In this document: positions 2,323 through 49,918 of the stretch, piece after piece
How the letters are laid out: each line of letters begins with the position of its first letter
How positions within the stretch are numbered: the stretch's first letter is position 1
Source: a virus
Lineage: Duplodnaviria > Caudoviricetes
IMG/VR virus record: IMGVR_UViG_3300037400_004093
Coordinates: 2,591 to 66,590 of that record
Strand: one strand, 5' to 3'
Length of the DNA: 64,000 nucleotides
The notes under the pieces: generated by a model
Told to the model about the DNA's origin: nothing
Databases searched by the model: none
Seen by the model: the letters and a program-made list of their open reading frames with translations, nothing else
Translations under genes and position numbers: made by a program

Positions 2323-5300
2323 TTAATATTCCTCGTCATAGTCATCCATCTTAAAGGATGGAGCTTTAACTACATCTTTATCCTTGAGATGATCCCAAGA
2401 AACGATCATGCCAAAACTCTTATCATCCAATCTTCTGGATAACAAGCCGGAAGACTTAGACAAGTCCTCGGCATAAACAATGGTTACCTTATCTCCAGTC
2501 TTAGCTGCATCGATAGTCAACTCCTGGAAGCGACGTTCACATGCAACTAAATCAGTTAATACGGCAATCATGTTTTCACGAGTTAAATTAATCTCGTATG
2601 CTGCAGTTATTACTGCATTTGCATCATCTTCGCTAACGCTGATAACGTCAACAAGATTGCACTCCACATCCTTATGAGTCTCCAAAGGAGAAACATAATT
2701 CTGTAAAGTGCGCTTCTTTCCCTTAAAAGCGTTGTTAAAGATGTGCTTCGCGAACTTTTCGTCTCCTGCTTTTAACTGAATTAAGGCCTCAACAAACTGT
2801 CCGTTAAGAACAGTTACCTTACCTACATCCAGATTAGCATTTTCGATAAAGTTCGCTAATGCAGTTAAACCGACATTGAAGTCAAACTTATTGTTAACCT
2901 TCTTAACTGGCTCCTGACCTTCATTATCAATGTAAACAGCGGTCAATCTCTTGATGCCTTCATCTACAATTTCTAATAAAGTATGGTCAGCGAAAGCTAC
3001 TGCACCATCGCCGTCGAAATCCATACCTGCTAACAGGTTCTTTAAGATCTCAATAGCTGGTACAACCAATAAGCCCTTACTAAAATGCTTTGCAGCATCC
3101 TTAACTAATCTCTTTTCAAGATCAGTTAAATCTTCGCAGTTATCTACCCTTTCTGCATACTCATGATAAGTCACAAGACGAATCTTGATCATTTCGAAGA
3201 TATGCATCTTAGGATATTTAACTGCAAAGAATTTTGAAACTCCTGCTTTTTCGGCCATAGAACATAAGCATTCTACAAAACCGTCATTATTGATTCCAAG
3301 AATTTTAGTTCCGAAATCTGCTGCTGGATCAGTAGTCAGCTTATTGTACCATCCCTTCATAGGAATGTTGACCTTCTTGAGCATGGACAGAATTCCCTTT
3401 AAAACTGTATTAATTGCAGTCTTAAACATAGGACGATAGATATCTGCCACAAAAGTAGGATCAATATTCTGAAGAACCTGACCTACATTTATATTAACAG
3501 CGCCATCATCCTCTGCCTCCACATCATCAGTCTCTTCAACTGATTCAGTTTCGCCGAACATCTCGTCAAAGATTTCAGCTACTGTTTTCTTAGAAGAGAA
3601 ATCTAATGCAGAAGGAATCCTGCCCTCAGGGATTACCCAATTGCCTTCTTCATCCTTAGAAATGACTCTAGCAACTTTCTTCTCAATATTCTTACGAATA
3701 AGAGATTCAAGATATTCCTGAGTCTTCTTTGGATTAAAGATTAAGGCAGTCTGCAACATCTGTGTGCTGGCTTTTGAACCATGAGCCACATCGTGACATT
3801 CATGAGTCATATCCAGCATATTAACACCGCTCTTAGTTTTCAGGTCATAAGTAGCCTTTAAACCATTAAGGTCAGTAAAATACTGCAGAAAACCATTTGG
3901 CAAACGGGTAATATCATACTCTCTGCCAGGGACACAACCAAAACCATGACTTAAAGCCCAATCAGCAGAAGGTACAACAATAACTAATTTCTTAGCATAA
4001 GCACCCTTCTTACCCTTGGACTTCACAGAAACGTTAAACTCATTCTGCTGTTCCTCCGTAATAGAATCACGGAATAATACAACGAACTTGCCACCACGAT
4101 TCTTTAACATAGTTTCGATGTATCCCTTCTTACGGGTAAGTGCCATTACCTTAGACAACCATGGACGACACTGAATGCCGACACCATTAACTGCCCATGG
4201 AGCAATTAAGTACTTACCACCTAACTTTTCAGTAAAAGCTTCAGCGATAAATTCGTCACTGAAAATGGCACGACCATCGAAGGATTCATCTTCTCTAGTC
4301 TTACCATTTAAGAGTGTCTTACCTAACTTCTCCTTACCCATGAAATAGCACACACATTCTAACTCTTTCAGATAGACAGAAGGAGCCTTATATGCACTAA
4401 GTCTGGTAATTAACTGAGCAACATCCTTATCGGTATGATCGTCAGTATCATCCAGATTCATAGTTACGGCACCGAAAGTACACTCATTCCATCTTTCATG
4501 TACCTTCTTAATACCAGCTTCGCCGCCACGATAGCCTGGGAAGCTACCGTCATGTTTCTTAGTCTGGGAAGCAGAGCTGGTTACACCTCCGCAGACTGGA
4601 TCATTATAGATCCAAACATGATTATGAACTTTGTTTTCTGCATTGAATACGATATTTCTATCTACTTTTTCAGCAGTAAATAAGTCCATCAACTTGCCAT
4701 CCAATCCTTCATAGAAAAATGGTGACAAAACTTCTTTATCCTCGGCAAGTCTTACATTTCCTTCGATATGGTATAACTTAGTATAACCATACTCAGGATT
4801 TTCTTCAGTACCTCCTTTCTTATAGCGCAGATGATTAAGAGCTTCTGCATCCTCAATCGTAATATCTACAATTTCAGATGTATATCTCTCAAACAATCTG
4901 GCAGTACCACCGATAGAAGTTGGAACATATGCTGGTGCAATGTCTAACTTATCGGTTTCTATGTTGGATACCTGCATCATTACAGATCTCTCAACCTTAT
5001 CTTTAGTAAAGAGAAGATGAGTGATATAGTAAGATGCAGGCTTAGACATAAGACTAGAGCGTAATCTTTCAACCTGGTCAATCTTCTGAATCAGTTTCAA
5101 GTTCTTCTCAGAAGCAAGTTCGATCCACTTATCTACAATACTAACCTTATTAATAGGGGTAGCAGCACCAATGGAAGTCTTAATATCTACCTGTGTACCA
5201 ACGAATTCAGGAATATTATATACTCTGGTTCCATTAGCTACAGCATAGATCATATGACCGTCAGCGATAACCGCAAAAGCTTCCGCCCCGATGTTGCTAT

Positions 5301-22853: not shown

Positions 22854-25800
22854 ATGATTTTTACGGCATTTAAAAAATTATCGCCAATAGAAGAAGCGAA
22901 ACTAAAAAAAATAATGGATGATCCTGTTTTGTGGGCCAAAGCCTTTATTCAGGCAAGAAATCCTGCTACTATGAAAACTGGACCATGGATAGCGAGAAAA
23001 TATCAAGTAGAAATGATGCACGATGATTCTTTAAGAAAAGTATACCGCATGGGAAGACGTTTGGGTAATAATAAATTTGCCGTCTAATTATGATATGTAC
23101 TGGAATAATTAGATTATAATGGCGGAATTAAGCTGGGAGGGTTATAAATACCTAATCAGAGACCGAACTTTTTATTAAATAAAAAGAGGCGCAACGCATA
23201 GATAGTGAAAAGATATAATCTATCCAAGAGGCCGCCACACGTTGTACATACAAGGATACGTGAAAAGATATGCTAAACTATATTATAATGATATAGAAGT
23301 TAAGATAAAAAACTTAACGATAATAAAATTGAAAACGGATACTATGTGTGTAGAAGGTCTTCATAAAGCTGCCAATAATAAAGGTTTTAGAATCTTATAC
23401 GTAACACCTTATGAAAACCAAGTAGACTTAATATTTGCGAGAATGAAAGAAATCATCGCGGATTCTCCATTAATAAAAACATTAGTGACGAGAATTACTA
23501 ATAGTCCTTATAAAATAGAATTCTCTAATGGATCCCAGATTAGAGGATTTACGACAGGAGCTGCTTCAGGAAATGGAGCAGCGTCGGTAATTTCTTAAAA
23601 ATATTGCCCGAGTCTGGTAGAAAGCCAAGACTTTGAAGATAGGTTAATTGCTGGAACATCCTTTAGATAGGACAATCAGCAGCCATCGCGTTTTTTAAAA
23701 AATGCTTGGTTCAACGACTAGAGAGTGACGCCTCGTAGAATTTAACGTAAATTCGAAATGCCTATCATCTAATAAAACATTAGATTAAGATATAGTCTGT
23801 ACTTATACGTAAGTATAAGAAGGTCGACGAGAGTATATAACGGCGCCGATCGTAACAAATTAGGCGCGGACAGAAAGCTGACATTTTTTTCTTTAATCCA
23901 CTTCATTAAAAAACATTCACTCCCATGGTAATAAATTAATGTAAAGACAAAATATCAATTATTATCATGAGGTGATTTTTAATGAATAATATTAATCCTA
24001 AACACAAAGACAAAATAATATCTATGCTAAAAGATGGGAAAAGTATATCTGAAATAGGACGTACTGTATTACATTCTACTGGAACAGGATCCATTAACAA
24101 TATCATTATAAAATTGGGAATACATCCTGAAGATTATAATAATAAATATTTGTATATGAATAGAGAATGGCTAACCAAAGCAATAGAAAAATATGAAACT
24201 CCATCAAAAATTGCTAAAATATACGGAATGCCTAGGACTTCAGTTACCAGATATGCTGAACGTTTTGAATTATATAAGTCAAAATTTAACAGGACAAAGA
24301 AAAATAATATAAATGAAGATTATTTTAAAAATATAAATACATGCAATAAAAGTTATTGGTTAGGTTTTGTCATGGCAGATGGATGTTTATGTCATATAGG
24401 AACATCAAGAAAATCATTTAGCATAATGATAAAAACAGAAGATAAGTCACATGTAATGCAATTTGCTAAAGATATAGATTTTCCAGAAGATAAAGTAAAA
24501 ACTAGAAAAGCTTTAAGAAAAAATACCATATGTAATACAACAGGATTTACAACTAGCAATAAAATATTTTGTAATAATTTAGAACAACATGGAATAGTCC
24601 CAAGAAAAACAGGAAAAGAAAGTATTCCCAAATCAATTCCTCAAGACTTAAAAAATGATTTTATACGAGGTTTTTTTGATGGTGACGGTCATATAGGATT
24701 TGATAGAATTGAAGTATCTACTACATCATTAACCATGTTAGAACAATTAACAAGTTGGTTATGTAATCATAGAATATTTTACACTATTCAAATTGTAGAT
24801 AAAACAAAATCTGTAATTCTATATCGCATAGTCATATCAAAACAATCTTGGAAAGATTTTCTAGATATAGTTTATTATCCTGGATGTTTTGGATTAGAAA
24901 GAAAAATAAATAAAGTTAAAGAAATACAGTCCACCTTAACAGGTGAATGAAAATGAATTGCCGGAACGCCCTTAGAGTCTTATCTACCATCAGCCAAGTA
25001 TAACGACTTGTTTAGGTAACAACGATAAGAATTGGGTAATCATAGGCAGCCATCGCGTTTCTTGAGAACGCTCGGTTCAACGACTATCCCTCGGCTCGCT
25101 TTCTATAAAATAAATGAGCAATAGGAGTACGGCCCGAAATCGTGGGCGGGTGAAATTCCCTTAATTGGAAGTGTTTTCCCTCTATTTTAGATAGAAGAAG
25201 ATATAGTCTGATCTTATAGGAAACTATAAGAAGGGTAGCATAACGTGCTATTCGTAACATAATGTGGATATTCATGGACGAGATAGATTACATGGGAGAA
25301 GATGATTATTCTACAGTAGCTATGATAGCTAGAGAAAGACCGACTATCGGAATAACAGCTTCTTCAACTCCAACAGGTAAACGTGGGGTAGACAGAATGC
25401 CTCACTATAAAAAACTGACTAATTGCGGGAAACTCCTTAGAGCTATCAAATACTTTTTAAAGTAATAAGTTTGATAGATTGGACAATCTGCAGCCAAGCT
25501 TTATTATATAAAAAAATAAAGAAGGTTCAACGACTAGAATATTATATTTGTACACTTTAAAAAAGTGGAAACGTCAGTCTCTTTTAATTAATTTATATTA
25601 AAAGATGAAGATATAGTCTATAAACTATTGAAAAATAGTTTAATTTTTATATAAAGGTTCTTCTCAATGTGTACTGACGCAAGCTGGGGGTTTAGTGAAC
25701 ACTATCATCCTTCCAGTGATAATCCTTTAAGAACACAAGCAATGGATGATGAAGATAGAGCCCAATTAACGGCTTCTCAATATGACCATGAAATATTAGC

Positions 25801-27406
25801 GATATTTGGTACTGAAGAAGCTGGTGTATTCGATAAAGCCAAATTAGATTTGGCTATGAAACAAGAATATTATACCTATAGTCCTTTAACTGATACTCAA
25901 AGAAGAAATTTAGAAGGCAATGAACTTCCTAATATGTATATCTATGAAGAAGGAGAACGAGCTCCTTCTAATGTATTTAGATGTGTAGGGGTAGTATACA
26001 AGTTTGCTCCGCTATATAGTAATATATAGAAAAATAAAATCCGTTAATTGCTGGAAAATCTATATTTTAAAATAAAATATAGACAATCAGCAGCCAAACT
26101 TTATTATATAAAAAGTAAAGTAGGTTCAACGACTAGAGTTATTTACTCGTACTCTTTTTCATTTATGATAAAGAGGAAGTGCGGAACTCCTTTATTTAAA
26201 AAATCAAATAAAGGATGAAGATATAGTCTGAACTTTATTGAAAAATAAAGCTAACATAAATGAGATTGGGATAAAGTGCAAGCTAGTTCTTCTATAGTAG
26301 TATTAGATTTTGATCAAGCACGTAAAAAATTTAAAGTCTTTAAACGATTTGAAGTACCTCGAAGCGAATATTCATTAGATAATGCTGTAGAATGGATTAT
26401 AAAAATTAATGAAATATATAATCCTTCATGGATATTCTGTGATAGAGGTTATGGTAAAAGATAAAATTGCCGTTTAATGGTTTTTCTTCTATATATTTAT
26501 TGTATATAACATAACCATTAAATTATTAGCGGGCAAAATCGGTGAAAGTTTTTTTAATACAAAAATATTATAAAGCTAATACCGAGGTAATTTATATAGT
26601 GTAGATATATAGATACCGTAACGCATAGTTTTTGAAATAATAAAACCAAGAGTGTCCGCCACGAAGAAGAAATCGTGAAAATATATGCTAATCTGAGTTG
26701 GAAATAACCAACCAATGAAAATGAGTGTAATGCTCCAGAGATTAAGATAAAAAGCTTAATGATAAAAATAAAAATGGATTATCAAATCGAAAGACTTCAT
26801 ATTTATGGAGATAAACATCCTTCTTCTGGTTTAAAAAATAAAGTAGTCGGATGGCAGTTCAAGAACACCGTAGAAATAATAGATCCAGTTACTAAAGTAA
26901 AGACCAAGGAGCCAATGAAGCCCTTTATGGTTAACCAATTAGCCCTTACAATAGAGAGAAATCGCTTAATTTTAAGTCCGTTCGATGAAAAATTACATCA
27001 ACAACTCGTGGACTATGTAGTTGAAAAAGTAACCGATACAGGTGTTCCTAAATATACTAGTAAAAATGAACATTTTGTAGATGCTTTAGGATTGGCTCAT
27101 TTAGCATTTGTTCTTAAATTTCCTGATTTAACTCAAGCTATTAAGAAAATTGAATTTTCATCAAAAATGGCTCATAGTAATGTAAGATTAGGTTCAGAAA
27201 GAATTGAAAACGAACTTCGTGGAGGTACGAGCATGAATCCTTGGGGAAATTTAAAACAAATAGGCAAAGAACCAGGAGAACGACCTGGAGATTATCAGAA
27301 ATGGGTAAAAGTTCCAATGAGAGCAACACCTTCTAATTATTCTAGTCGATCTTCGTGGGGATCAAGAACAAGTGGCCGAGGTATGGGCGGCAGATCTATG
27401 TGGTAA
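22854..27406 (+). CDS. terL: terminase large subunit, 7 exons, 590 aa after splicing
   Basis: Join 22854-23066, 23332-23588, 23864-23882, 25265-25389, 25657-25992, 26263-26455, 26777-27406 (1773 nt, in frame). Restores GRRLG|KT (Walker A), RGQKAD|WIFMDE (Walker B), STPTGKRGV|FF, VGV|DWD and DRGYG|DY. Confidence 0.92.
23067..23331 (+). mobile_element. group I intron terL-I1 (265 nt, no ORF)
   Basis: Exon ends in U, intron ends in G; P7 CAACGCATAG/AAGATATGCT; interrupts Walker A. Confidence 0.85.
23589..23863 (+). mobile_element. group I intron terL-I2 (275 nt, no ORF)
   Basis: AATTGCTGGAA, AATCAGCAG, TTCAACGACTA and GATATAGTCT core motifs; GT|G boundary. Confidence 0.88.
23883..25264 (+). 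mobile_element. group I intron terL-I3 carrying a homing endonuclease
   Basis: Ribozyme core follows the ORF (AATTGCCGGAA...TTCAACGACTA...GAAGATATAGTCT); junction is 23883-25264 or 23886-25267. Confidence 0.85.
23982..24950 (+). CDS. LAGLIDADG homing endonuclease with an N-terminal HTH-like region
   Basis: YWLGFVMADG and FIRGFFDGDG motifs; own GAGGTG RBS inside the intron. Confidence 0.88.
   Translation: MNNINPKHKDKIISMLKDGKSISEIGRTVLHSTGTGSINNIIIKLGIHPEDYNNKYLYMNREWLTKAIEKYETPSKIAKIYGMPRTSVTRYAERFELYKSKFNRTKKNNINEDYFKNINTCNKSYWLGFVMADGCLCHIGTSRKSFSIMIKTEDKSHVMQFAKDIDFPEDKVKTRKALRKNTICNTTGFTTSNKIFCNNLEQHGIVPRKTGKESIPKSIPQDLKNDFIRGFFDGDGHIGFDRIEVSTTSLTMLEQLTSWLCNHRIFYTIQIVDKTKSVILYRIVISKQSWKDFLDIVYYPGCFGLERKINKVKEIQSTLTGE
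25390..25656 (+). mobile_element. group I intron terL-I4 (267 nt)
   Basis: Core motifs present; P3 ACTGAC/GTCAGT; inserted after GGGGT. Confidence 0.87.
25993..26262 (+). mobile_element. group I intron terL-I5 (270 nt)
   Basis: Core motifs, close in sequence to I4; inserted after GGGGT, just before the nuclease catalytic Asp. Confidence 0.87.
26456..26776 (+). mobile_element. group I intron terL-I6 (321 nt)
   Basis: P7 TAACGCATAG/ATATGCTA, same class as I1; GGT|...G boundary. Confidence 0.85.
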
Positions 27407-29131: not shown

Positions 29132-31255
29132 GTGCAAAATATAGTGAACTTAACTGATTTAATGTTTTGGCGTAAAAAAGATAAAGAGATAAAAGAAATA
29201 AGTGTCGATGAAGCTGGAGGAAAAAGTTCTGGCGGACAAATTACTTCTTCTAACATAAATAATTTCGTAGTTAAAGCAGTTGGATTTACTGGAGATGATA
29301 ACTCAGATGACTTTACATCTCCAGAAGTAGACTTGTCAGAGATAAAGAATGCCGTAAATGGTGATTCTTATATAAAAATGGCAATATCTAAACAGTCTCA
29401 GCTTATATTTAAAGCTGGATATTCTATTGTTAGTGAAAATGATGCTGCAGCAGAATATTTACGAGGAAGACTCCGAATGATGAGTTTTATGACGGGCACT
29501 CCTACGGATATGTTATTTCAACAAACTGCAGATGATTTAGTTACTTATTCTAATGCTTTTTGGATTAAGTCTAGACAACAGATGAGTAATATAGGAGGAT
29601 TACAAGCAAAAGGAGTATTCGATTCAAATCCTGTATGTGGATATTTTAGAGTAGATCCTGCTACTATAACAATAAAAAGAGATAAAAGTGGAACCATTAA
29701 ACAGTATCAACAGGAAGCGGGTAATAATAAAAAGACGTTTAAACCAACAGATGTGGTTCATTTCTATATAGATAAATCTGGAGGTGCTGCATTCGGTACA
29801 CCAAGAATCATTGCAGCAATAGAGGATGTTAAATTACTTCGTAAAATTGAAGGTAATGTCCTTAATTTAATTTACAGATATTCTTCCCCAACTTATCAGA
29901 TGAAGATAGGTATAGCTGAAGCTGGACTAATGGCTACTGATAAAGAAATTAAAGAAGCACAAAAAGAAGTAGAAAAAATGTCTAATGATGGAATTCTTGT
30001 TACAAATGAAAGAACAGAGTTTAAAGCAATAGGCGCTGATGGTGTAGCATTAGATATAACCGGATATCTTTCTTATTTTGAGAAAAGAGTTTTCTCCGCT
30101 TTAAATTCTTCTGAATCTATGATGGGAAGAGGTGGAGCAAAACAAGATGCTGACTCCATGGAAGAACAAATACATGACACCGTTAAATATTATCAATTCT
30201 GTTTTTCTACTATAATTAGAGAACTCGTATTTAATGAACTACTTCTTGAAGGTGGATATAATCCTATAGCAAATGAACAAGATATTTGTAGTTTTGCTTT
30301 CAATGAGATAAATAATGAAACAAGAGTTAAGATGGAAACTCATGCCTTAAATCAATTCCAAGGTAATTGTATTACCTTTGAAGAAATGAGGAAGCTTACA
30401 GGCAGAAGAGCTGATAATGTTGATGAATCTAGGCTTTATGCTAATCAAATTCAAACGCCTAATGCTATATCATTAATTCAAGCAAAAATGGGTGGCAATA
30501 CGGGCAATTCAGATAACCAAAATGCAAATACAGGCCCAGATAAAAAGATAAAAGATAATTCAGGGACAGTAAAAAACACTATTGAACCAGAAAATAAAAA
30601 TGGCAAAAGTTCTGTTCACATAAAAGAAAATTTAGATAAAGATATATTAGAATCGAATAAAGATAGTAATATAATTACGAAAGAAAATATAGACAATTAC
30701 AAAAAAAATTTTAAAAACATAGATAAAAGATATAATTCTTTGCGTAATGATATATGTGAACATGGCAATAGCTATGCAACATTAGCCATAGCAAGAGACG
30801 GTATCGTAAAAGAATTAAAAGAATATACCGCTATTAAAGTGCAAGAAGGTATAAATAAAGCAATTAAAGATAGTGGTGAAAAAGATTTTGCAATAAATAA
30901 ATTATCTATGTCTTTAATAGATGATAAAATAGACGAAATTAGTAAATCTATCTTTAAAGATATAAATAAAAAGATAAAAAAAGCAAATAATCGGCAAGAG
31001 AAAGAAGCCGTGTTTGATTCTATAGAATATCGTTTAAGATTTTTAACGGAACATATCGTAGATAAAAGTTATTGGTATGGATACATTAAAACATGCCAGC
31101 AATTAAAAATTAATAAAATTTATGTAAATTTTGGAAAGAGCAATGATAAAGACAAGTATGAGCGGGTAATAAATACTAGTAGCTTCATTTTAGAAGATAT
31201 TCCGCCATTTCATGCATATTGCACTTGTAAATTGTCGCTCAACGACAAAAATTAG
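29132..31255 (+). CDS. portal protein with a MuF-like C-terminal extension
   Basis: Position after terL; FGTPRIIAAIEDV portal-like segment; ends IPPFHAYCTC. Confidence 0.8.
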   Translation: MQNIVNLTDLMFWRKKDKEIKEISVDEAGGKSSGGQITSSNINNFVVKAVGFTGDDNSDDFTSPEVDLSEIKNAVNGDSYIKMAISKQSQLIFKAGYSIVSENDAAAEYLRGRLRMMSFMTGTPTDMLFQQTADDLVTYSNAFWIKSRQQMSNIGGLQAKGVFDSNPVCGYFRVDPATITIKRDKSGTIKQYQQEAGNNKKTFKPTDVVHFYIDKSGGAAFGTPRIIAAIEDVKLLRKIEGNVLNLIYRYSSPTYQMKIGIAEAGLMATDKEIKEAQKEVEKMSNDGILVTNERTEFKAIGADGVALDITGYLSYFEKRVFSALNSSESMMGRGGAKQDADSMEEQIHDTVKYYQFCFSTIIRELVFNELLLEGGYNPIANEQDICSFAFNEINNETRVKMETHALNQFQGNCITFEEMRKLTGRRADNVDESRLYANQIQTPNAISLIQAKMGGNTGNSDNQNANTGPDKKIKDNSGTVKNTIEPENKNGKSSVHIKENLDKDILESNKDSNIITKENIDNYKKNFKNIDKRYNSLRNDICEHGNSYATLAIARDGIVKELKEYTAIKVQEGINKAIKDSGEKDFAINKLSMSLIDDKIDEISKSIFKDINKKIKKANNRQEKEAVFDSIEYRLRFLTEHIVDKSYWYGYIKTCQQLKINKIYVNFGKSNDKDKYERVINTSSFILEDIPPFHAYCTCKLSLNDKN

Positions 31256-34455: not shown

Positions 34456-35712
34456 GTGGCATTAAACATGAAAGAAGCACTTGAAAACATCGATAAGCTT
34501 CGTAAAGCTGCAGTTGCTCAGCAGGAAGCTTATGATGCTGGCAAGAGTAAGAATAAGCCATCTATAAAGCCTGGTACTTTTGATACTATGGAAAAGATGG
34601 TACGTAATATGAATGGTGATTTTAGTAAGGGCCGTACTACTGTATCTGAATCCCTTATGTCTACCGATACAATTAAGTTAATCCCTAAGGTTATTGAAGG
34701 TCAGCTTCGTGAAGCAGCAGAACCAGAACTTTTATCTACTCGATTCATGAATACTATTCATGTAGAGGGTGGTGCTTCTACTGTATTCGTTATTCCTGTT
34801 GTCGGAGAACTTCGTGCAAGTGAAGTATCTGAGGGCGGCCGTTACAATGAAGACAGCGTAGACATCAATACCATCGAAAACGGAACTCTCGAAGTTCGTG
34901 TTAAGAAGATTGGTTTGAAGGTATCTATTACTGAAGAAGCTATTTCTGATTCCGGTTGGGACATTTACGGTATTAATGTTCGTAAGATGGGTACCGCTAT
35001 GGGTCGTTATAAGGATCAGTGGGGCTTCCAGTCTTTCTCTACTCATGGTCATGTAATTTTTGATAATGCTTTACGCGAACAGGTTCCAGAAGCTGGTACT
35101 ACTGGTCGTGATTCTCACGGTAACTTCAATGATACTTTATCTACTGAAGATTTCCTTGATTTGAGCCTTGCTATTATGGGTGAAGGAATGAATCCTACTG
35201 ATGTTATTATGCATCCACTGTGTTGGACTGTATTCGCTAGAAATTCTATGATCGGTAATGGTTTAAGCTATGGTGCTCTTGGTGGACAGAATGTTCATCC
35301 TTGGGGTGCAACTCAGGGTACTCCTGGTTTCGCAGGTTTGCAAGCTGATATTGGACCTCAGAAGATAATTATGCGTCCAGAAGATGTCCAGGGTCGTCTG
35401 CCAATGCCTATGACTATTAATTTCAGTCACAATGTACGTTTCGATAAGCAGAATAAGAATTTCGATATGTACATTATTGATAGAGCTAATGTAGGTGTTA
35501 TCGTAGAGAAGGAAGCATTAACTACTGATAACTGGACTGATCCAGAGAGAGATATCCGTCTTTTGAAGGTTAAGGAACGTTATGGTATTGGTATTGTAGA
35601 AAATGGTAAGGGTATTTCCGTAGCACGTAATATTGCACTCGCTCCTACTTATCCTGTTCCACCTACTGTTAATATTAATGCAACTCTTCCAGAAGGGACA
35701 ACTCTTCCCTGA
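34456..35712 (+). CDS. major capsid protein
   Basis: HK97-like pattern (ELRASEVSEG, KKIGLKVSITEEAISD, KERYGIG); strong RBS; terminator follows. Confidence 0.85.
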   Translation: MALNMKEALENIDKLRKAAVAQQEAYDAGKSKNKPSIKPGTFDTMEKMVRNMNGDFSKGRTTVSESLMSTDTIKLIPKVIEGQLREAAEPELLSTRFMNTIHVEGGASTVFVIPVVGELRASEVSEGGRYNEDSVDINTIENGTLEVRVKKIGLKVSITEEAISDSGWDIYGINVRKMGTAMGRYKDQWGFQSFSTHGHVIFDNALREQVPEAGTTGRDSHGNFNDTLSTEDFLDLSLAIMGEGMNPTDVIMHPLCWTVFARNSMIGNGLSYGALGGQNVHPWGATQGTPGFAGLQADIGPQKIIMRPEDVQGRLPMPMTINFSHNVRFDKQNKNFDMYIIDRANVGVIVEKEALTTDNWTDPERDIRLLKVKERYGIGIVENGKGISVARNIALAPTYPVPPTVNINATLPEGTTLP

Positions 35713-40058: not shown

Positions 40059-40751
40059 ATGAGAGTAAATATGTTTGAAGCTATGCTACAAAGGAAATCT
40101 GATATGTCAGCTGAATTCTTCAAAAAAATGCACCCAAAAGAAGAAGACATTACTTATCCTGATCATAAAACAAAAGCCAATAAAGGTGCTACTTTATACG
40201 ACTTAATTGAAATGATCAGTATGTTGGTAACCAAATCCATGAAAAAAGATAATGTAACATTCTATCCAGATGAAGGTGGTAGACCTATAAACGATATTTC
40301 TGTCGCTATAGAACATCCTATGATTTATTATAAAATAATTTCTCGAGAACCTAAAGATGAATTAAAACCTAGGTCAAGAGAAGATATTGTAGAAATAACT
40401 GATAAAGATAGTGGCGAAAAGCGTATAGGTCGTATTTGGGGCGCCAGACAAAAATGTGTCGTGCAATTTGACATATTAGCTTGTGATTATAAACAAGCTG
40501 ACAAAACCATGAATGATTTTGAAGATTTAATTTTTAACTATACTGGATATTTAAAAGAAAATGGTGTAGCCGAAATAATCTTTAAAAAGCATTTTACAGA
40601 TACCAATTATGATATATTCAGACAATCTATTTCAGTAAGAAGTCTGCAATATTATGTTGAAATAGAAAAACATATAGTAGAATTCTTTTCAACTATAAAT
40701 GGTGTACTCATTGAACAAGTTGATAATAATTCAATTAATTCAAAAAATTAA
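40059..40751 (+). CDS. putative tail terminator/completion protein
   Basis: Directly before the sheath gene; start codon uncertain. Confidence 0.45.
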   Translation: MRVNMFEAMLQRKSDMSAEFFKKMHPKEEDITYPDHKTKANKGATLYDLIEMISMLVTKSMKKDNVTFYPDEGGRPINDISVAIEHPMIYYKIISREPKDELKPRSREDIVEITDKDSGEKRIGRIWGARQKCVVQFDILACDYKQADKTMNDFEDLIFNYTGYLKENGVAEIIFKKHFTDTNYDIFRQSISVRSLQYYVEIEKHIVEFFSTINGVLIEQVDNNSINSKN

Positions 40752-40761
40752 GGAGGACAAA

Positions 40762-43704
40762 ATGAGTAACAGTATTTTTAACAATGATGACAATTTACCT
40801 GGCGTCTACATAGAAGTTCAAGACAATACCGGTTATAAATATGATACATCTTTGTTTGGCACTACTGATTCTATTGTAGTTATTGGTACAGCTTTTAATG
40901 GTCCTGTAAACCAGCCAGTAGCTATTTATAATCCAGAGCATGCAAAGTATGTATTCGGTGCTGTTTTTGATCCTATTAAGCGTCAGGAAGCATCTTTGAT
41001 GGCAGGTATTCAGGATGCATGGGATCGTGGATGTCGTACAATTTACGGTGTTCGTATTAGTGGTAAAGACATGCATAAAGATTTCCATTTCTGCACTGAT
41101 ACTATGAATCGTATCCGCTTAAGTTCTGCTTTCCCTTCCAATATTACTAAGGATTGTTATATCAGATATGATAATACTCCAGGTAATGAGACAATTTATC
41201 TTTATAAGCCTGCTTCTCGTGCAACTATTGCTGAACGCAAACGTGGTGACGTTAAGTCTGCAAATTCTATTCTCGTAAAGGAAATTAAACTTGCTCAATC
41301 TTACGGATACAATTCAAATACACCTCTTGTCGAAGTTATTCGTATGTTGAATCAGACTGATAGCAATAATGTTATTGTTTTAACTATTGTAGATAGAGAC
41401 GGTAAGAATATTACTAATTCCACTGAAGCTTATAATATTCCATTGGGTGCATTGCTCCCAGGTGTATACTTCATTGGTCGTGATCATTCCGAATGTCTGC
41501 CTATTACTTCTACTAAGTTATTAATGGCTAGTGAAAATAGTGATAAAGTTCCTTATGATAACTTCGAGGATATTTATTTCCGTTCTTTAGAGATTAACAC
41601 CGATGTTCGTCGTGATTATCCTATTTACTTCGATAGCGCTCGTCGTAAGGAATTTGCTTCTTACGTTCGTGACTGTGGTGTTATCATGAGTACTCCATGG
41701 GATTTCTTAGAAGTAACTGGTGCTGCTGATGTAGTATTCTCTAAGGATAAAGTAGATTATGAAGAGACTAAGCTTTCTACTTTCGATATCTATAAACGTC
41801 TGGGTAATGGCTATACTATTACTGCTGTAGCTGAGAAGCGTGGTGTCGGAGCAGATGGTAAAGATCTCCCACCTAGAATTAGAGAAGCAAACGTTAAAGA
41901 TATTGCTCGTATGAAGTATATCGATGAAGGTACTTATAGTGCTATTGAAAGTGCTGAGATTAAATATCGTGTTCTTACTCATGTAGGTGCCGATACTAAG
42001 ATTTCTGCAAAGCTCCCTAAGCCAGCAGATTTCTTAAAGACTAGTCAGGAAAGTCTTTCTGTATTGAATGATTATATGACTCTTACTACTAAGGTAGCAG
42101 AGGATGACTTTACTAAATCTAAGGCTTATAAGGTAACATTCAACAAGATTACTAGTCCTGCTTCTGATACTTCTGAAGACATTTATGCCGGCGAAGTATT
42201 TACTATTGCTGATACTGTTGATGATATTGCTAAGATTATTCCAGAAGAAGTTGAGAATGATACTTTCATTATGATCATCGATGGCACAAATGATAACAAG
42301 CTGGTAAAGGTATTAGATGACGTTGTTACTATCATTAATGATTTGAATTATGTCGGCAATCATTTTATCGTAGGCAATAAGTTATATGTCGGCGATGTTG
42401 ATAGTTCTAGCAATTTAATTTTCGTAGAAGAGAACTTTACATTTAATAGCGGTACTTCTAACTATGAATATACTGATCGTTTAGGTACTGGCTATGAGTA
42501 TGTTCTTGGTGAAGCTTTAGATACTGTATTCGTATTTCAGCCAGTTGCTGCTAATGAGATTACTCCTCTTGGCGACGTTAATACTATGTTTGGCAAGAGT
42601 GAGTCTGATGAAGCAGCTATGTTACTTACTTTCGCAGAATCTATGCCTTTCAAGGATTACAACACTGTAAATATTAATTCCGCATATTTCGATAGTATGA
42701 CTCTCGAAGAGTTGGTAACTGCTATTAATGACCATCCAGTTCTTAATCAGCTCTTTACCGCTTCTTTAACTCCTCTTGGAGCAGAAGTTAAAGATTATAT
42801 CGTAGATAGTTCTAATGTAGCCGATACTGAACTTGGCAAGACTTATGTTTTGACTACAGATCGTACTACTGGTTATGACTATACTATGCATATTCCTTAT
42901 CGTACTACTGATAACTTTGCTAGACAGCTTGCTCAGCATTGTACTTATACTGAGTTAAAGACTTGCCCAACTCATGGCCTTATCGGTTTCGATCGTCAGA
43001 CTGATTCTAGCTTAGTTGGTCTTTCTAAGAAAGTAGATCTTCTGTCTAGATATGACTATGATATGTTTGCTAAGAACGCTATCGGTCAGAACATGTTAAA
43101 CAAAAACAACGAACCTTATGATGTAGGTCGTAATGTATCTTGTGTATTTGGTCAGTATCTGATTACTGTAGGCGATGAAAACTATACTTATCTTTCTCAG
43201 GGCGCTCCTGGTTATGCTGGTATGGTATCTATTCTCCCTCTTGATCAGAGCTCTACTAACCAGAGTATCAATCTTTCTTCCTTAACCTTTAATCTTACTA
43301 CTTCTCAGCTTACTAAGTTGACTGCTGCTGGTATCGTAACCTTTAAAAATTCCGTAAAGAAGGGTATTGTCGTTACTGATGGTATTACTATGGCTCCTGC
43401 TACTTCTTCTTTCCGTCGTCTTGCTTGCAGTCGTATTATGCATGCCGTAGAAGATCTGATTCGTCAGGAAGCAGAAGTATTTATCGGTAAGCAGAACCAT
43501 GCTGCAAACAGAGATGCTTTACATACTGCGATTAAGTCTGCTTTAGATAAGTTAGTTAATACTTTGATTGAAAAGTATGAGTTCAGTTTATCTACCGATC
43601 CAAATGCTCTGAAGTTTACCTATATCGATATTAATTATACTATTGTACCTATTAATGAGATTAGGGAAATTAACAACTACATTTCAGTTCAGGATGAACT
43701 TTAA
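40762..43704 (+). CDS. tail sheath protein
   Basis: AGGAGG RBS; LPGVYIEV..., IGTAFNGPVNQPV N-terminus and RIMHAVEDLIRQEAEVFIGKQN sheath C-terminus. Confidence 0.88.
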   Translation: MSNSIFNNDDNLPGVYIEVQDNTGYKYDTSLFGTTDSIVVIGTAFNGPVNQPVAIYNPEHAKYVFGAVFDPIKRQEASLMAGIQDAWDRGCRTIYGVRISGKDMHKDFHFCTDTMNRIRLSSAFPSNITKDCYIRYDNTPGNETIYLYKPASRATIAERKRGDVKSANSILVKEIKLAQSYGYNSNTPLVEVIRMLNQTDSNNVIVLTIVDRDGKNITNSTEAYNIPLGALLPGVYFIGRDHSECLPITSTKLLMASENSDKVPYDNFEDIYFRSLEINTDVRRDYPIYFDSARRKEFASYVRDCGVIMSTPWDFLEVTGAADVVFSKDKVDYEETKLSTFDIYKRLGNGYTITAVAEKRGVGADGKDLPPRIREANVKDIARMKYIDEGTYSAIESAEIKYRVLTHVGADTKISAKLPKPADFLKTSQESLSVLNDYMTLTTKVAEDDFTKSKAYKVTFNKITSPASDTSEDIYAGEVFTIADTVDDIAKIIPEEVENDTFIMIIDGTNDNKLVKVLDDVVTIINDLNYVGNHFIVGNKLYVGDVDSSSNLIFVEENFTFNSGTSNYEYTDRLGTGYEYVLGEALDTVFVFQPVAANEITPLGDVNTMFGKSESDEAAMLLTFAESMPFKDYNTVNINSAYFDSMTLEELVTAINDHPVLNQLFTASLTPLGAEVKDYIVDSSNVADTELGKTYVLTTDRTTGYDYTMHIPYRTTDNFARQLAQHCTYTELKTCPTHGLIGFDRQTDSSLVGLSKKVDLLSRYDYDMFAKNAIGQNMLNKNNEPYDVGRNVSCVFGQYLITVGDENYTYLSQGAPGYAGMVSILPLDQSSTNQSINLSSLTFNLTTSQLTKLTAAGIVTFKNSVKKGIVVTDGITMAPATSSFRRLACSRIMHAVEDLIRQEAEVFIGKQNHAANRDALHTAIKSALDKLVNTLIEKYEFSLSTDPNALKFTYIDINYTIVPINEIREINNYISVQDEL

Positions 43705-43807
43705 TATATAAGAAAAAATTATTCAATATTTAGTATATAGATTAATGGAGAAATCTATTAAACGGATTTCTCCATATCTATAAATTTTAAGGAGTGAAAA
43801 TATAAAG

Positions 43808-45525
43808 ATGGCAACAGGTTATCAGACAGCATCTGCTTATACTCGTACTTATACCAGTTTTAGTGGGTGTGACATTGTCGCAACTTTCGCTGGTGTGGTG
43901 ATCGGCGAATTACAAGCTATTACATATAGCGTTCAAAGAGAAAAAGCACCGATTAACCTATAGTGTAGGTCGGACTAGTGTAAAATATGGATAGCACTAG
44001 AAGGAAATGCGGAAAAAATCTGGAAGGCTAAGTTTTATTTATATAATAAAATATGTTAATCAGAGGTGAAGGTTTATATATATTAACCAGCCGCAACGCA
44101 TAGTTCTTGAAATAATAGAACCAAGAGGCCGCATCAATCTCCATATAAATTGATTGAAAAGATATGCTAAACTTATATGAAAATATAAGATATAGAATGT
44201 AAAAATATTCTATGATAATAGTTATTCGCTATACAATGGGTTCTGCTGAACCACGTTCTTTCTCCAGAGGTTTATCTAACGCAAGCCTCGCGGCATAGTA
44301 ATATGTCGAATAATATATTCCGTGAATTGCTGGAAAACCGTAACATATAATTAGTACCAATATGTCGGCAATCAGCAGCCTAATCTTTTTTTTAAAAGAT
44401 AGGTTCAACGACTAATCCATTATGGCTCGAGAACTAAAATAAATGAGCATTAGATGTAGGTCCTATTCAAAACGAATTAAAATAGGAGAGTGAAATTCTC
44501 TTAAATCGAAGTGCGGAACATCTTAAAAAACAAAAAGATGAAGATATAGTCTAATCCTTTAAGACAATTAAAGGTATTAATGAAGCGCGGTATTGCAGGT
44601 ACTTTAGTATTTACCGTATTTGATCATGATGCATTAATTAATGCTTTGGAACAGCATGTGGATATGTCTTCCTTCCAGCGTATTGGTGGCAATGCTAATA
44701 TGCAGGCAATGGATATCACTGAATGGGATAAGGCATTAACCAATATGATTACTAATCAGACCGATTCTGCTCAGATTACTCAAGATATCGCTCGTAATTG
44801 GGATGGGAAGGAAGATAGTAATAATGTAAATATCTTAAATTCTAAAAATGGTGCTGTTAATTCTGGTAAAGCAGATACTAAGCATACTAAGATTTACTAT
44901 GCAGATGAAATTCCTCCATTAAAATATCTAGTGGCCTAACTAAGTGATTAGTTAGAGAAAAGTTACTTAATTGCTGGAAACTCTTTATATAATAAAGACA
45001 ATCAGCAGCCAATTCTTTAATTTCATAAAGAAAGGTTCAACGACTATGCAGGAATGCAGTACACTTAAGTAAGTGGAAAGAGTAACTGTCTTTTATAAGA
45101 TAATAATATAGTCTGATCTCATAAGTAATTATGAGTCCTTTATTAATATAGGATAATAAATTTAACGTATTTATTATAACGATAATGTTGATATTACTAT
45201 CAGTTTTGCTAACGAGTATGGACAGAATGCTCGTGTCGTAATTTATTCTGTAGAAATCTTGAATGAAGGTTCTGGTTTCAGTATTGATAATGTATCTTCT
45301 GAAAAGGCTTGTACTTTTGTAGCCCGTCGTGTTGACTACATGAAAGCTGTTGTAAAGGGTGGTACCACTACTGGTGGCAATACTGTCAATACCAATACTG
45401 GTGGCAGCAATAACCAGAAACAGACCACTGATAACTCTAACAAGCAAGCTATTAATGGTCCAGCTACCCCTCAGACTAACAATGCAATTTTTGAGGGCGG
45501 TAAAGACGGTATGATTAGAGTTTAA
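43808..45525 (+). CDS. tail tube protein, 4 exons, 287 aa after splicing
   Basis: Join 43808-43953, 44229-44271, 44583-44919, 45188-45525 (864 nt): SFSGCDIVA...REKAPI|YTMGSAEPRSFSRG|KRGIAGTLVF...DEIPPF|DITISFANEYG; aligns by eye with the intact paralog at 45639. Confidence 0.9.
43954..44228 (+). mobile_element. group I intron tube-I1 (275 nt)
   Basis: P1: exon CCGAU pairs with IGS GUCGG; P7 CAACGCATAG/AAGATATGCT. Confidence 0.87.
44272..44582 (+). mobile_element. group I intron tube-I2 (311 nt)
   Basis: P1: exon GAGGU pairs with IGS GCCUC; core TTCAACGACTA/GAAGATATAGTCT. Confidence 0.87.
44920..45187 (+). mobile_element. group I intron tube-I3 (268 nt)
   Basis: P1: exon CCAU pairs with IGS GUGG; core TTCAACGACTA/ATATAGTCT. 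Confidence 0.87.
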
Positions 45526-45638
45526 TATATTATATAGTATAAACAGAATATAATATAGTTATATATTTTTTATAGAGAAAGCTGATATTATATCAACTTT
45601 CTCTATTTATTTATAAAGGATAGAGAGGAGAAATAGAT

Positions 45639-47264
45639 ATGCCAGGACAGTTACCTCCTGCATTAATAGAAGCGGCAGGAAAAATAGGGCAAACAGTGAT
45701 GAGTGTTGTAGCACGAGGATTACCTTCTGCAGCTGAAAGAACATATGGTACAGGAGTAGGCAGAAATATAATTACCAATTGGAATAATCTTAGTGCTAAA
45801 GCAAAAGAATTAGTTACTAATGATGCAACCAAGATGGTGGCAAAAGAATTAGGAATAGAATTAGCTGTTGACGAAATAGCTAGTGTGGTAGAGAATTTTC
45901 TAGCGAAAAACGGAACAAAATTGCCTTCAGGCATAGCAGAAACTGGAGCAATAAAAGGCCCCTCTGAGTTAAGTTCTGTTAGTACGTTTATTCCTCCCGT
46001 TGGATTTGGAGGCAATGGAGAATCTGGAGTAAATGAATATATTAGAAAAAGATATTCTTATTCCGGACATGATATGGTATGTTCCATTATTATGCCAATG
46101 CCTGATGGAAGTGGAACAATTACTAAAGTTATAGGTGAATTACAGCATATTACCTATTCTATTCATGAAGAAAAGAGTTTAATAAGAAATTTAGGAAACA
46201 TGAATCCTCGAGGATATGTATTTGGTCCTAGAACTATTGCAGGAACTATGGTATTTAGCGTATTTTATCGTCATTTTGCTTTAGAATTAATGAAAGAGTA
46301 TACAGACAAAAAAGGAATGACGACACATTTTCTAATGGATGAACTCCCTGAATTTGATTTAGTGATTTCCTGTGCTAATGAATATGGAGATAAATCAGTA
46401 TTAGTAATATATGGAATTACCTTAGTAAATGAAGGCCAAGTGATGTCTATTAATGATGTTTATACAGAAAATACTTATGAATATTATGCTAAAGATATAG
46501 ATTATCTTACTGAAGTTACAGATAAGGCTACAAGTTCTAAAAAAGAAAATAAAACTGAAAAACCTATTATTGTGGATGAAAAAAATGATGATAACTCTGC
46601 AGAAGATTCTGGTTTTTTTGAATTCTTAAAAGATAGTTCTAAAGAATCGGATAAAGAAGATAATTCTGAAAAACCAATAGAAGAAGAATCAAATTCTATA
46701 ATGGATTATTTATCTAATACACTGAATTCTATATCAGAAGAACTTCCATCTTTAAATGATTTTGTTGCGCCGATAAAACAATTAACAGATAAAACAGATA
46801 ATTTAGTGAATAACATATTGCCAGAACAATTTTCTTTGATTGATAGAGCCAATAGTAATGTTCAAAATAAAATCAATGAAATGACTGATAAATATGAAAA
46901 CGAAAAAAAATTTATAGAAAATGAAATAGACACAAATATAATAGACCCAGATAAAGGTAATCAATTATTAGAAGAATTAAAGAAAAATTATGATGAAGGA
47001 AAAGAAGCTTTATTATATGATTATAACAATTATAAAGACAATATCATAGAAAATAATCGACAGAAACTAGATTCTTATTGCGAGCAAATAAATAAAGGCA
47101 TAAAAGAGGAATACGATAAACAAATCGATAAACTTTTAGAAGAAGGAGAAATACTTCAAGATAAAGCTGACAAGATTAGATATGATCTGTATAATTCTTA
47201 TAATCAGAAAAAAGAAGAATACCAAACTAAATTTAATGAGGCTCTAGATAGTCTGAAAATTTAA
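45639..47264 (+). CDS. tail tube paralog with N- and C-terminal extensions
   Basis: YSYSGHDMV...IGELQHITYSIHEEK...GPRTIAGTMVF...LPEFDLVISCANEYG. Confidence 0.75.
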   Translation: MPGQLPPALIEAAGKIGQTVMSVVARGLPSAAERTYGTGVGRNIITNWNNLSAKAKELVTNDATKMVAKELGIELAVDEIASVVENFLAKNGTKLPSGIAETGAIKGPSELSSVSTFIPPVGFGGNGESGVNEYIRKRYSYSGHDMVCSIIMPMPDGSGTITKVIGELQHITYSIHEEKSLIRNLGNMNPRGYVFGPRTIAGTMVFSVFYRHFALELMKEYTDKKGMTTHFLMDELPEFDLVISCANEYGDKSVLVIYGITLVNEGQVMSINDVYTENTYEYYAKDIDYLTEVTDKATSSKKENKTEKPIIVDEKNDDNSAEDSGFFEFLKDSSKESDKEDNSEKPIEEESNSIMDYLSNTLNSISEELPSLNDFVAPIKQLTDKTDNLVNNILPEQFSLIDRANSNVQNKINEMTDKYENEKKFIENEIDTNIIDPDKGNQLLEELKKNYDEGKEALLYDYNNYKDNIIENNRQKLDSYCEQINKGIKEEYDKQIDKLLEEGEILQDKADKIRYDLYNSYNQKKEEYQTKFNEALDSLKI

Positions 47265-49057: not shown

Positions 49058-49918
49058 ATGTCATCAACACCTTTAGATAAAAGACCTACGTATACTCCAT
49101 TATTGAATACAAATAAAATAACTAGAACAGAAAATGGATATTCTGTTGGACAAACAACATTAAAAAGATATTATTCAGAAATTGACGCCGAAATCTATTT
49201 CGGCAACGAATATGTAGAAGATATAGATTACATAGAGTGGAGTATTAATGAAAGTACTATCCCATTATTTGGATATAATAGCTATACTTATGATGAAATA
49301 GCTAAAGGTTCGAGAATTATAAATGGTAGTTTTACGATAAATTTTACATCTCCTAACTATTTATTTCAGATAATTCAATCAGCACAAAATGTTGAAAATC
49401 TCATAACCAACATGAAGTCATATATGATAGAAGATAATTCTAGAGATAAAACATATATTAATACTTCATTGAATGGTATAGGTATTTCAGGAACTAATTC
49501 TGCTCCAATATATGATTATACTTTCGATATAGACATTATGTATGGACAAAATTCTGAATATGGTTCTCCTTGTCATGTAATTTTAAAAGGAGTTACTTTA
49601 TTAGGTTGTAACACAAAAGTTGGTGCATATGGAGGACCAGTTAAAGAAGCATATTCTTTTATCGCAAAAGATATTATTACAGATGGAGGTTCTTATGGTG
49701 AAGAAAATGCTGCTAAAGTAAACAATACTATAACTAATACAACTAACAGTGCAGAATATGATCCAGAGAATGAAGCTAACATAGTTTATAGAGGAGTTAA
49801 TAGTTCAGGATTAGTTGATCCAACAGAATCTCCAAAAAATTACTATACTACAGGAGATCCAATTATAGACGAACAATTAAAAGATTTTGATGAAATCGTA
49901 AATAGTTGGAAACGCTAA
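49058..49918 (+). CDS. tube-fold baseplate hub / tube initiator
   Basis: YYSEIDAEIYFG...IPLFGYNSY...KGSRIINGSFTINF, tube-like pattern. Confidence 0.6.
   Translation: MSSTPLDKRPTYTPLLNTNKITRTENGYSVGQTTLKRYYSEIDAEIYFGNEYVEDIDYIEWSINESTIPLFGYNSYTYDEIAKGSRIINGSFTINFTSPNYLFQIIQSAQNVENLITNMKSYMIEDNSRDKTYINTSLNGIGISGTNSAPIYDYTFDIDIMYGQNSEYGSPCHVILKGVTLLGCNTKVGAYGGPVKEAYSFIAKDIITDGGSYGEENAAKVNNTITNTTNSAEYDPENEANIVYRGVNSSGLVDPTESPKNYYTTGDPIIDEQLKDFDEIVNSWKR

Follow-up and report, generated by a model that had tools for sequence, protein, structure and literature searches.

In an uncultivated phage of the bovine and pig gut that is related to the 0305phi8-36 group, three group I introns without an open reading frame (ORF) appear to cut the major tail-tube gene. 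We give this reading a probability of about 0.88, based on sequence comparison and on the modelled fold of a homologue. The gene lies in a window of 64,000 nucleotides, by which we mean the whole stretch of viral DNA that was analyzed. The viral record itself is 66.6 kb long and only about 28% complete, so the phage is probably a giant.

The tube gene can be read as one frame spread over four exons. Region 43808-45525 on the plus strand has no long ORF and holds only reading frames of 51 codons (43808-43963), 119 codons (44580-44939), and 88 codons (45259-45525). When the following exons are joined, they give 864 nt in one frame that encodes 287 amino acids, and the only stop is the terminal one.

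43808-43953, plus strand: tube exon 1, 146 nt (48 codons plus 2 nt), matching PHROG 9206 positions 13-55
43954-44228, plus strand: putative intron 1, 275 nt, no ORF, diverged group I class
44229-44271, plus strand: tube exon 2, a 43-nt micro-exon, YTMGSAEPRSFSRG, no ORF
44272-44582, plus strand: putative intron 2, 311 nt, no ORF, RF00028 at 75.1 bits (E = 9.1e-19)
44583-44919, plus strand: tube exon 3, 337 nt, with tblastn matches and a variable helical insertion
44920-45187, plus strand: putative intron 3, 268 nt, no ORF of note, RF00028 at 90.8 bits (E = 1.8e-23) over 44910-45135
45188-45525, plus strand: tube exon 4, 338 nt including the stop, matching PHROG 9206 positions 113-189

The original prediction held that half of this locus is intron and that its first two exons escape an ORF track. 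Both points were borne out: the introns sum to 854 of 1718 nt (49.7%), exon 1 lies in an ORF of 51 codons, under the usual cut of 60 amino acids, and exon 2 lies in none. The exon 1 ATG is preceded by AAGGAG, 13 nt upstream. A second apparent start, the ATG of the ORF at 44580-44939, is formed by the last three nucleotides of intron 2 (44580-44582); it is in frame with exon 3 and has AAAGG 5 nt upstream. Gene callers thus give a 119-amino acid “protein” that begins MKRGIAG, and several public clusters (P0001-P0005) are such fragments.

Uninterrupted homologues match the four exons in order. Proteins of the Bacillus phages WH1, KLEB27-3, and 0305phi8-36 and of the Moorella phage MTATph1 were matched by all four exons in tblastn, with zero residues missing. 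WH1 gp101 was matched at residues 2-44, 45-58, 59-76, and 121-182; exon 1 is 72% identical to the first of these blocks and exon 2 is 79% identical to the second, which is contiguous with the matches of exons 1 and 3. Exon 4 is 57-62% identical to the KLEB27-3 tail tube protein. In PHROG 9206, exon 3 is matched from position 71, which leaves positions 56-70 for the 14-residue exon 2, and an uninterrupted relative (L005) reads through both junctions that flank exon 3. A public protein search returned 76 full-length homologues of 197-292 amino acids, many of them on contigs of 100-330 kb. The spliced product (best identity 67%) aligns without gaps at junctions 1, 2, and 3 to 75, 76, and 76 of these 76 homologues, respectively. 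The junctions sit within the most conserved motifs, REKAPI/YTMG, SFSRG/KRGIAG, and DEIPP(F)DIT. The joins encode exactly the junction peptides that had been proposed, APIYTMG, SRGKRG, and IPPFDIT, and these match the uninterrupted homologues at every residue.

The genes around the locus are those of a contractile tail module. The following neighbors frame the tube gene.

40699-43704, plus strand: tail sheath gene, 1001 amino acids, PHROG 16991 tail sheath (E = 1.4e-65)
45639-47264, plus strand: tube paralogue, 541 amino acids, uninterrupted, PHROG 9206 (E = 2.5e-37)

The sheath gene stands where 0305phi8-36, KLEB27-3, WH1, and MTATph1 have theirs. Directly 3' of it lies the tube gene, followed by the paralogues, the phrog_29362 proteins at 49906 and 50848, and a 2263-aa ORF at 51891. 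The tube gene is thereby placed 5' of the chaperone-like genes and of the 2263-aa ORF, as expected of a tail tube gene, which should follow the sheath and precede the chaperones and the tape measure; 0305phi8-36 shows this order too. The 541-aa paralogue bears the motifs of the tube gene at residues ~130-306 and is the equivalent of 0305phi8-36 gp141, annotated “tail tube paralog”; a second intact paralogue with the same domain lies downstream (49058-49918).

A homologue of the spliced product is predicted to adopt a tail-tube fold. AlphaFold was run on P0016, a homologue that shares 67% identity with the spliced product, from a diverse alignment drawn from a family of 3191 clusters. The model reached a pLDDT of 85 and takes on the tail-tube/Hcp fold; it superseded a first model from a shallow alignment, unusable at pLDDT 53, after a wider homologue search. 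Structural matches in the PDB were the tail tubes of phage 812, HFTV1, PVC, and AFP, together with lambda gpV, Hcp, and diffocin (E from 8e-6 to 1e-3; target TM-score up to 0.68), and tail tube and major tail proteins were among the matches in the BFVD viral models. Neither the exons nor the paralogue nor the Bacillus homologues fall in a Pfam family; the family profile found no solved relative among PDB sequences, and megablast of the locus against 50,697 phage records gave no match. On the synteny of 0305phi8-36 gp139-gp141, the homology to annotated tail tubes, and the homologue fold, we identify the split gene as the tail-tube gene, as had been proposed. PHROG 9206 is labelled “major head protein”, as is the RefSeq entry for ORF140 of NC_009760. 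This label is contradicted by the separate capsid gene of the window (34456-35712; the portal gene is at 29132-31255), by the tail tube fold, by synteny, and by the GenBank note on the 0305phi8-36 protein, and it is probably a propagated annotation error.

Two hairpins flank the tube gene. By eye, the gap between sheath gene and tube gene contains a perfect 11-bp hairpin, ATGGAGAAATC...GATTTCTCCAT, at 43746-43776, and past the tube stop, at 45573-45603, a second hairpin leads into a stretch rich in T. A promoter and terminator scan gave nothing above shuffles; the simple terminator scan missed both hairpins because they have few G-C pairs.

Introns 2 and 3 are, by sequence, canonical phage-type group I introns. 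Both exceed the curated RF00028 threshold of 50 bits. Both have the phage-type core elements P, Q, R, and S, namely AAUUGC.GG (AAUUGCUGG), AAUCAGCAGCC, GUUCAACGACUA, and AAGAUAUAGUCU, as well as hairpins between P7 and P3'. Their main elements are as follows.

Intron 2: P1 44267-73/44283-89; P7 GACUA 44410-14 / UAGUC 44547-51; terminal G 44582
Intron 3: P7.1 and P7.2 hairpins 45047-75; a 3' extension of extra hairpins, 45136-77, before the terminal G

In intron 2, P1 has five exon pairs plus two around U44271-G44285. In intron 3, it has four plus two around U44919-G44931, and P10 forms 7 of 8 pairs with 45188-95 ahead of the terminal G45187. P10 of intron 2 is weak (only three pairs) and an alternative cut after G44573 would be in frame; we count both against our explanation. 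That cut corresponds to the Rfam end of intron 2 and was rejected as a splice site, since it adds the residues VLM, which are found in no homologue. Two other placements were also rejected: the Rfam P1 of intron 2, which falls wholly inside exon 2, and the Rfam end of intron 3 (45135), where a cut runs into a stop codon. With a local identity of 60-66%, the three tube introns did not arise as recent copies from one another, and none of them holds an endonuclease-sized ORF.

Intron 1 is a diverged group I intron that the standard model misses. RF00028 gave it 19.1 bits (E = 0.009 on 321 nt), under the threshold, so its assignment rests on comparative analysis. Its predicted elements are as follows.

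5' elements: P1 43949-53/43969-73; P10 43963-68/44229-34; P2 43975-80/43995-44000
Core: P3 44007-12/44129-34; P4 44019-23/44060-64; P6 44071-88; P7 44098-102/44163-67
3' elements: P7.1 44103-07/44117-21; P8 44134-39/44152-57; P9 44172-89; P9.1 44192-44213; terminal G 44228

P1 contains U43953-G43969 and five exon pairs, and P10 has six pairs. A 5' cut after 43954 would give the same protein and was rejected, as the intron would then end in C. Intron 1 is set apart by three features: its P7 reads GCAUA/UAUGC, it has only one P7.1 hairpin, and its CCAAGAG linker is conserved. It shares AACGCAUAG ... CCAAGAG ... AUAUGCUAA with two elements in the terminase gene of the window, and the pattern of this class is present in 30 other viral contigs from IMG/VR (L008-L037). 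When RF00028 was run on 12 loci of the class, none of the 12 elements was reported, even at E up to 1, although the model does find ordinary group I introns beside some of them.

Covariation supports a group I core in this class. RNAalifold on 20 distinct members returned P7, P7.1 (four pairs, all covarying and none broken), and a covarying P8; P7 was fixed by the search pattern, so that its own covariation is impossible to see. In the long-range P3 helix, each sequence forms a mean of 6.5 bp with its own partner strand, against 4.7 bp when partners are exchanged among sequences, and at least 6 bp are reached in 18 of 21 own pairings vs 21% of swaps. P3 crosses P7, as in group I introns generally. 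Between intron 1 of the window and that of a relative (L007), P3 changes from AUGCGG/CCGCAU to ACGCGG/CCGCGU, a compensatory change; P5 and P9.1 show pair-preserving changes, and the remaining differences are in loops or presumed unpaired parts, including the CCAAGAG linker. The elements of the group I core topology (P3 around P4-P6 and the 5' strand of P7; P7 around P3' and P8; then P9) were located in all three introns. Thus, intron 1 has, on comparative grounds, the architecture of a group I intron. The claim of three group I-type introns at these junctions, each with a P1 that contains a U-G pair and with a terminal G (44228, 44582, and 45187), is upheld by the exon map and the intron features.

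The terminase large-subunit gene of the window (22854-27406) is also heavily split, by these elements.

RF00028 introns: 23587-23819, 24872-25230, 25355-25640, 25983-26250
Elements of the intron 1 class: cores at 23193-23276 and 26620-26691

A 322-aa ORF (23982-24950) lies just upstream of the second of these Rfam matches (24872-25230) and overlaps its start. More broadly, the intron 1 class is widespread in IMG/VR contigs, apparently of large phages from the gut and other habitats.

We infer splicing of the three introns from sequence, by the usual group I path. Guanosine would attack after the U of the P1 U-G pair, and the released 5' exon would then attack after the terminal G, with P10 aligning the two. 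Late pre-mRNA would in this way lose all three introns and yield a tube protein of 287 amino acids. The introns themselves are probably selfish mobile elements lodged in the REKAPI/YTMG, SFSRG/KRGIAG, and DEIPP/FDIT motifs, which would spread between related phages through recombination or through homing with co-conversion of flanking exons.

The split locus recurs in independent data. The stretch was found in bovine and pig gut metagenomes of 14 studies. In a run from another study (X2), one contig of 17 kb spans the whole locus with 13 differences, and run X9 holds the whole locus plus one more insertion at 43940-43945. In the runs compared, no DNA allele without the three introns was found. 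The window is a metagenome-assembled viral fragment, and the interruption might for that reason be a chimera or other assembly artefact. This explanation is refuted by the independent contigs of X2 and X9, the second with one further intron. Homologues of the introns also occupy matching positions in L007, which comes from a separate run; we give an artefact practically no weight.

Read in the spliced frame, most exon differences between strains are silent (7 of 11 codons in X2, 9 of 12 in X9, and 7 of 8 in the metatranscriptome X16), which favors a functional gene under purifying selection. They bear on the possibility that the split gene is a decaying pseudogene with dead insertions, the tube being made from the paralogues at 45639-47264 and 49058-49918. 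Such decay would fit the presence of two intact paralogues with the same domain and the poor Rfam score of intron 1. Against it, the four exons keep one frame free of stops, their product shares 67% identity with intact orthologues and its motifs align free of gaps, and the ribozyme cores are intact and show compensatory changes. Furthermore, a tube gene alongside paralogues is found in 0305phi8-36 too, where the annotation of gp140 names it as a virion protein detected by mass spectrometry. We therefore regard decay as highly improbable and retain the reading of a functional, spliced tube gene.

RNA data give a weak hint of splicing. Metatranscriptome X16 holds two contigs from the locus, which differ from the window at a few positions. 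Both are exon-only: one starts exactly at 44583, the first base of exon 3, and the other starts 5 nt into exon 4. The hint is weak because no contig joins exons, and exon-exon joins were absent among the contigs of all runs. In a second RNA run (X17), contigs run through intron 1 and exon 2 into the first part of intron 2; these are unspliced RNA or DNA carry-over. Regions that lack RNA coverage in X16 and X17 are uninformative.

One or more of the introns may instead need a protein factor or splice poorly, and so act as a regulatory gate on the amount or timing of tube protein rather than as neutral parasites. The diverged core of intron 1 that RF00028 misses, the weak P10 of intron 2, and the X17 contigs that cover intron 1 with exon 2 are compatible with such a gate, and introns are discussed as possible switches in PMC11878797. 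The sequence, however, demands no cofactor, as all core helices are present. Moreover, the same introns occur in relatives with and without neighboring introns, as selfish elements, but not a tuned switch, would be expected to do. We consider a gate unlikely and favor selfish introns that splice in the usual way.

The introns of the tube gene have moved between related phages. L007 is 95.6% identical to the window over intron 1, 97.7% over exon 2, and 98.4% over intron 2, which occupies the same site in both; it is only 72% identical over exon 1, 72% over the rest of exon 3, and 69% over the sheath gene. Introns that are near-identical while exons are ~72% identical indicate that introns move. 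In sequence, this pattern is the signature that recent transfer with co-conversion of the flanking exon would leave.

Occupancy of the intron sites varies within the clade. Most relatives of the tube gene are uninterrupted. In L007, a fourth insertion interrupts the gene a few codons before intron 1. It is the sole insertion in two further relatives (L005 and L006), whose reading frame continues unbroken over junctions 2 and 3. The insertion is found as follows.

Upstream insertion, 395-440 nt: L005 2270-2664; L007 about 1416-1855; in X9 at window position 43940-43945

It has group I-like GACUA/UAGUC elements and reaches only 16 bits in RF00028; a terminal G requires a cut after A or G, not U, which is unusual for group I. 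The window is the empty allele for this insertion. At the third tube site, L007 carries a group II intron (2789-4974) just after IPPFD, in place of the group I intron, as indicated by RF02004 at 45 bits, an RVT_1 ORF of 512 amino acids, and a domain 5 whose start is seen where the locus ends.

Among public protein fragments, every combination is represented. Some start with MKRGIAG, just past intron 2, or with MGSAEP, just past intron 1. Others end in EIPPLKYLVA, which is read-through of intron 3, in EIPPSTYY..., which is a different intron at the same site, or in EIPPFDSVRL... or EIPPFDGMW..., which mark an insertion after FD. Within the clade, four or five sites in one gene are filled in some phages and empty in others. 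Their conserved motifs are shared as targets by two group I classes and, in one relative, by a group II intron.

We tentatively propose that the intron 1 class is a distinct group I subgroup, not yet catalogued, and that intron 1, the micro-exon, and intron 2 spread as a block between phages that are ~70% identical; we hold this possible but rather doubtful. If it is true, phage intron counts are underestimates, and introns that lack endonucleases are able to spread as composite units. The Rfam blind spot for the class bears on intron counts in viral metagenomes. For gene prediction, the locus shows how an essential and abundant structural gene can be invisible to standard callers, which give only the 119-aa fragment, and public protein sets hold many such fragments (MKRGIAG..., MGSAEP..., ...EIPPLKYLVA).

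The closest homologue among well-described phages is gp140 of 0305phi8-36. It is about 50% identical to the window gene in conserved blocks, and the order gp139 sheath, gp140 tail tube, gp141 paralogue is identical. The GenBank note describes gp140 as a virion protein identified by mass spectrometry. Unlike the window gene, gp140 is uninterrupted; the 0305phi8-36 intron cited in PMC3239194 lies in recA.

Introns 2 and 3 resemble the introns of T4 td/nrdB, Twort, and SPO1, which belong to subgroup IA2. The likeness lies in the core elements P, Q, R, and S and in the hairpins between P7 and P3'; P7.1/P7.2 hairpins are a mark of these phage-type introns (compare PMC11878797). Set against these introns, introns 2 and 3 carry no homing endonuclease ORF. 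Intron 1 departs from the type in its P7 of GCAUA/UAUGC, its single P7.1, its CCAAGAG linker, and its sub-threshold score in Rfam.

The arrangement of the tube gene has a precedent in Twort. The original prediction had pointed to a late Twort gene with three group I introns and called the pattern rare. The precedent holds and is closer than was realized: in its account of Twort, PMC11878797 (citing Landthaler & Shub 1999) gives orf142 three group I introns and reports that it later proved to be the tail tube gene. Rarity was overstated, as the arrangement is an established one. Both genes are late tail-tube genes of phages with contractile tails and Gram-positive-type hosts, and both have three small group I introns. 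They differ in that one intron here, intron 1, is of a class that goes undetected by RF00028. Exon skipping has been seen in Twort, whereas here skipping of exon 2 or exon 3 (43 and 337 nt) breaks the frame.

The likeness to Twort is, on sequence and modelled structure, one of arrangement and fold, not of lineage. In tblastn of exon 4 against 50,697 phage records, no Twort-like record was matched, and the six matches were all giant phages of Bacillus and Moorella. The top structural match, phage 812, agrees at the level of fold only, with 8-10% identity; we take phage 812 to be a staphylococcal relative of Twort. A known arrangement is thus repeated in an unrelated phage lineage, which adds an independent case of a tube gene that needs three splicing events. 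Beyond what had been predicted, the locus brings an intron 1 class to which Rfam is blind, a putative transfer of introns 1 and 2 together with exon 2 as one block, and the variable occupancy of intron sites across the clade.
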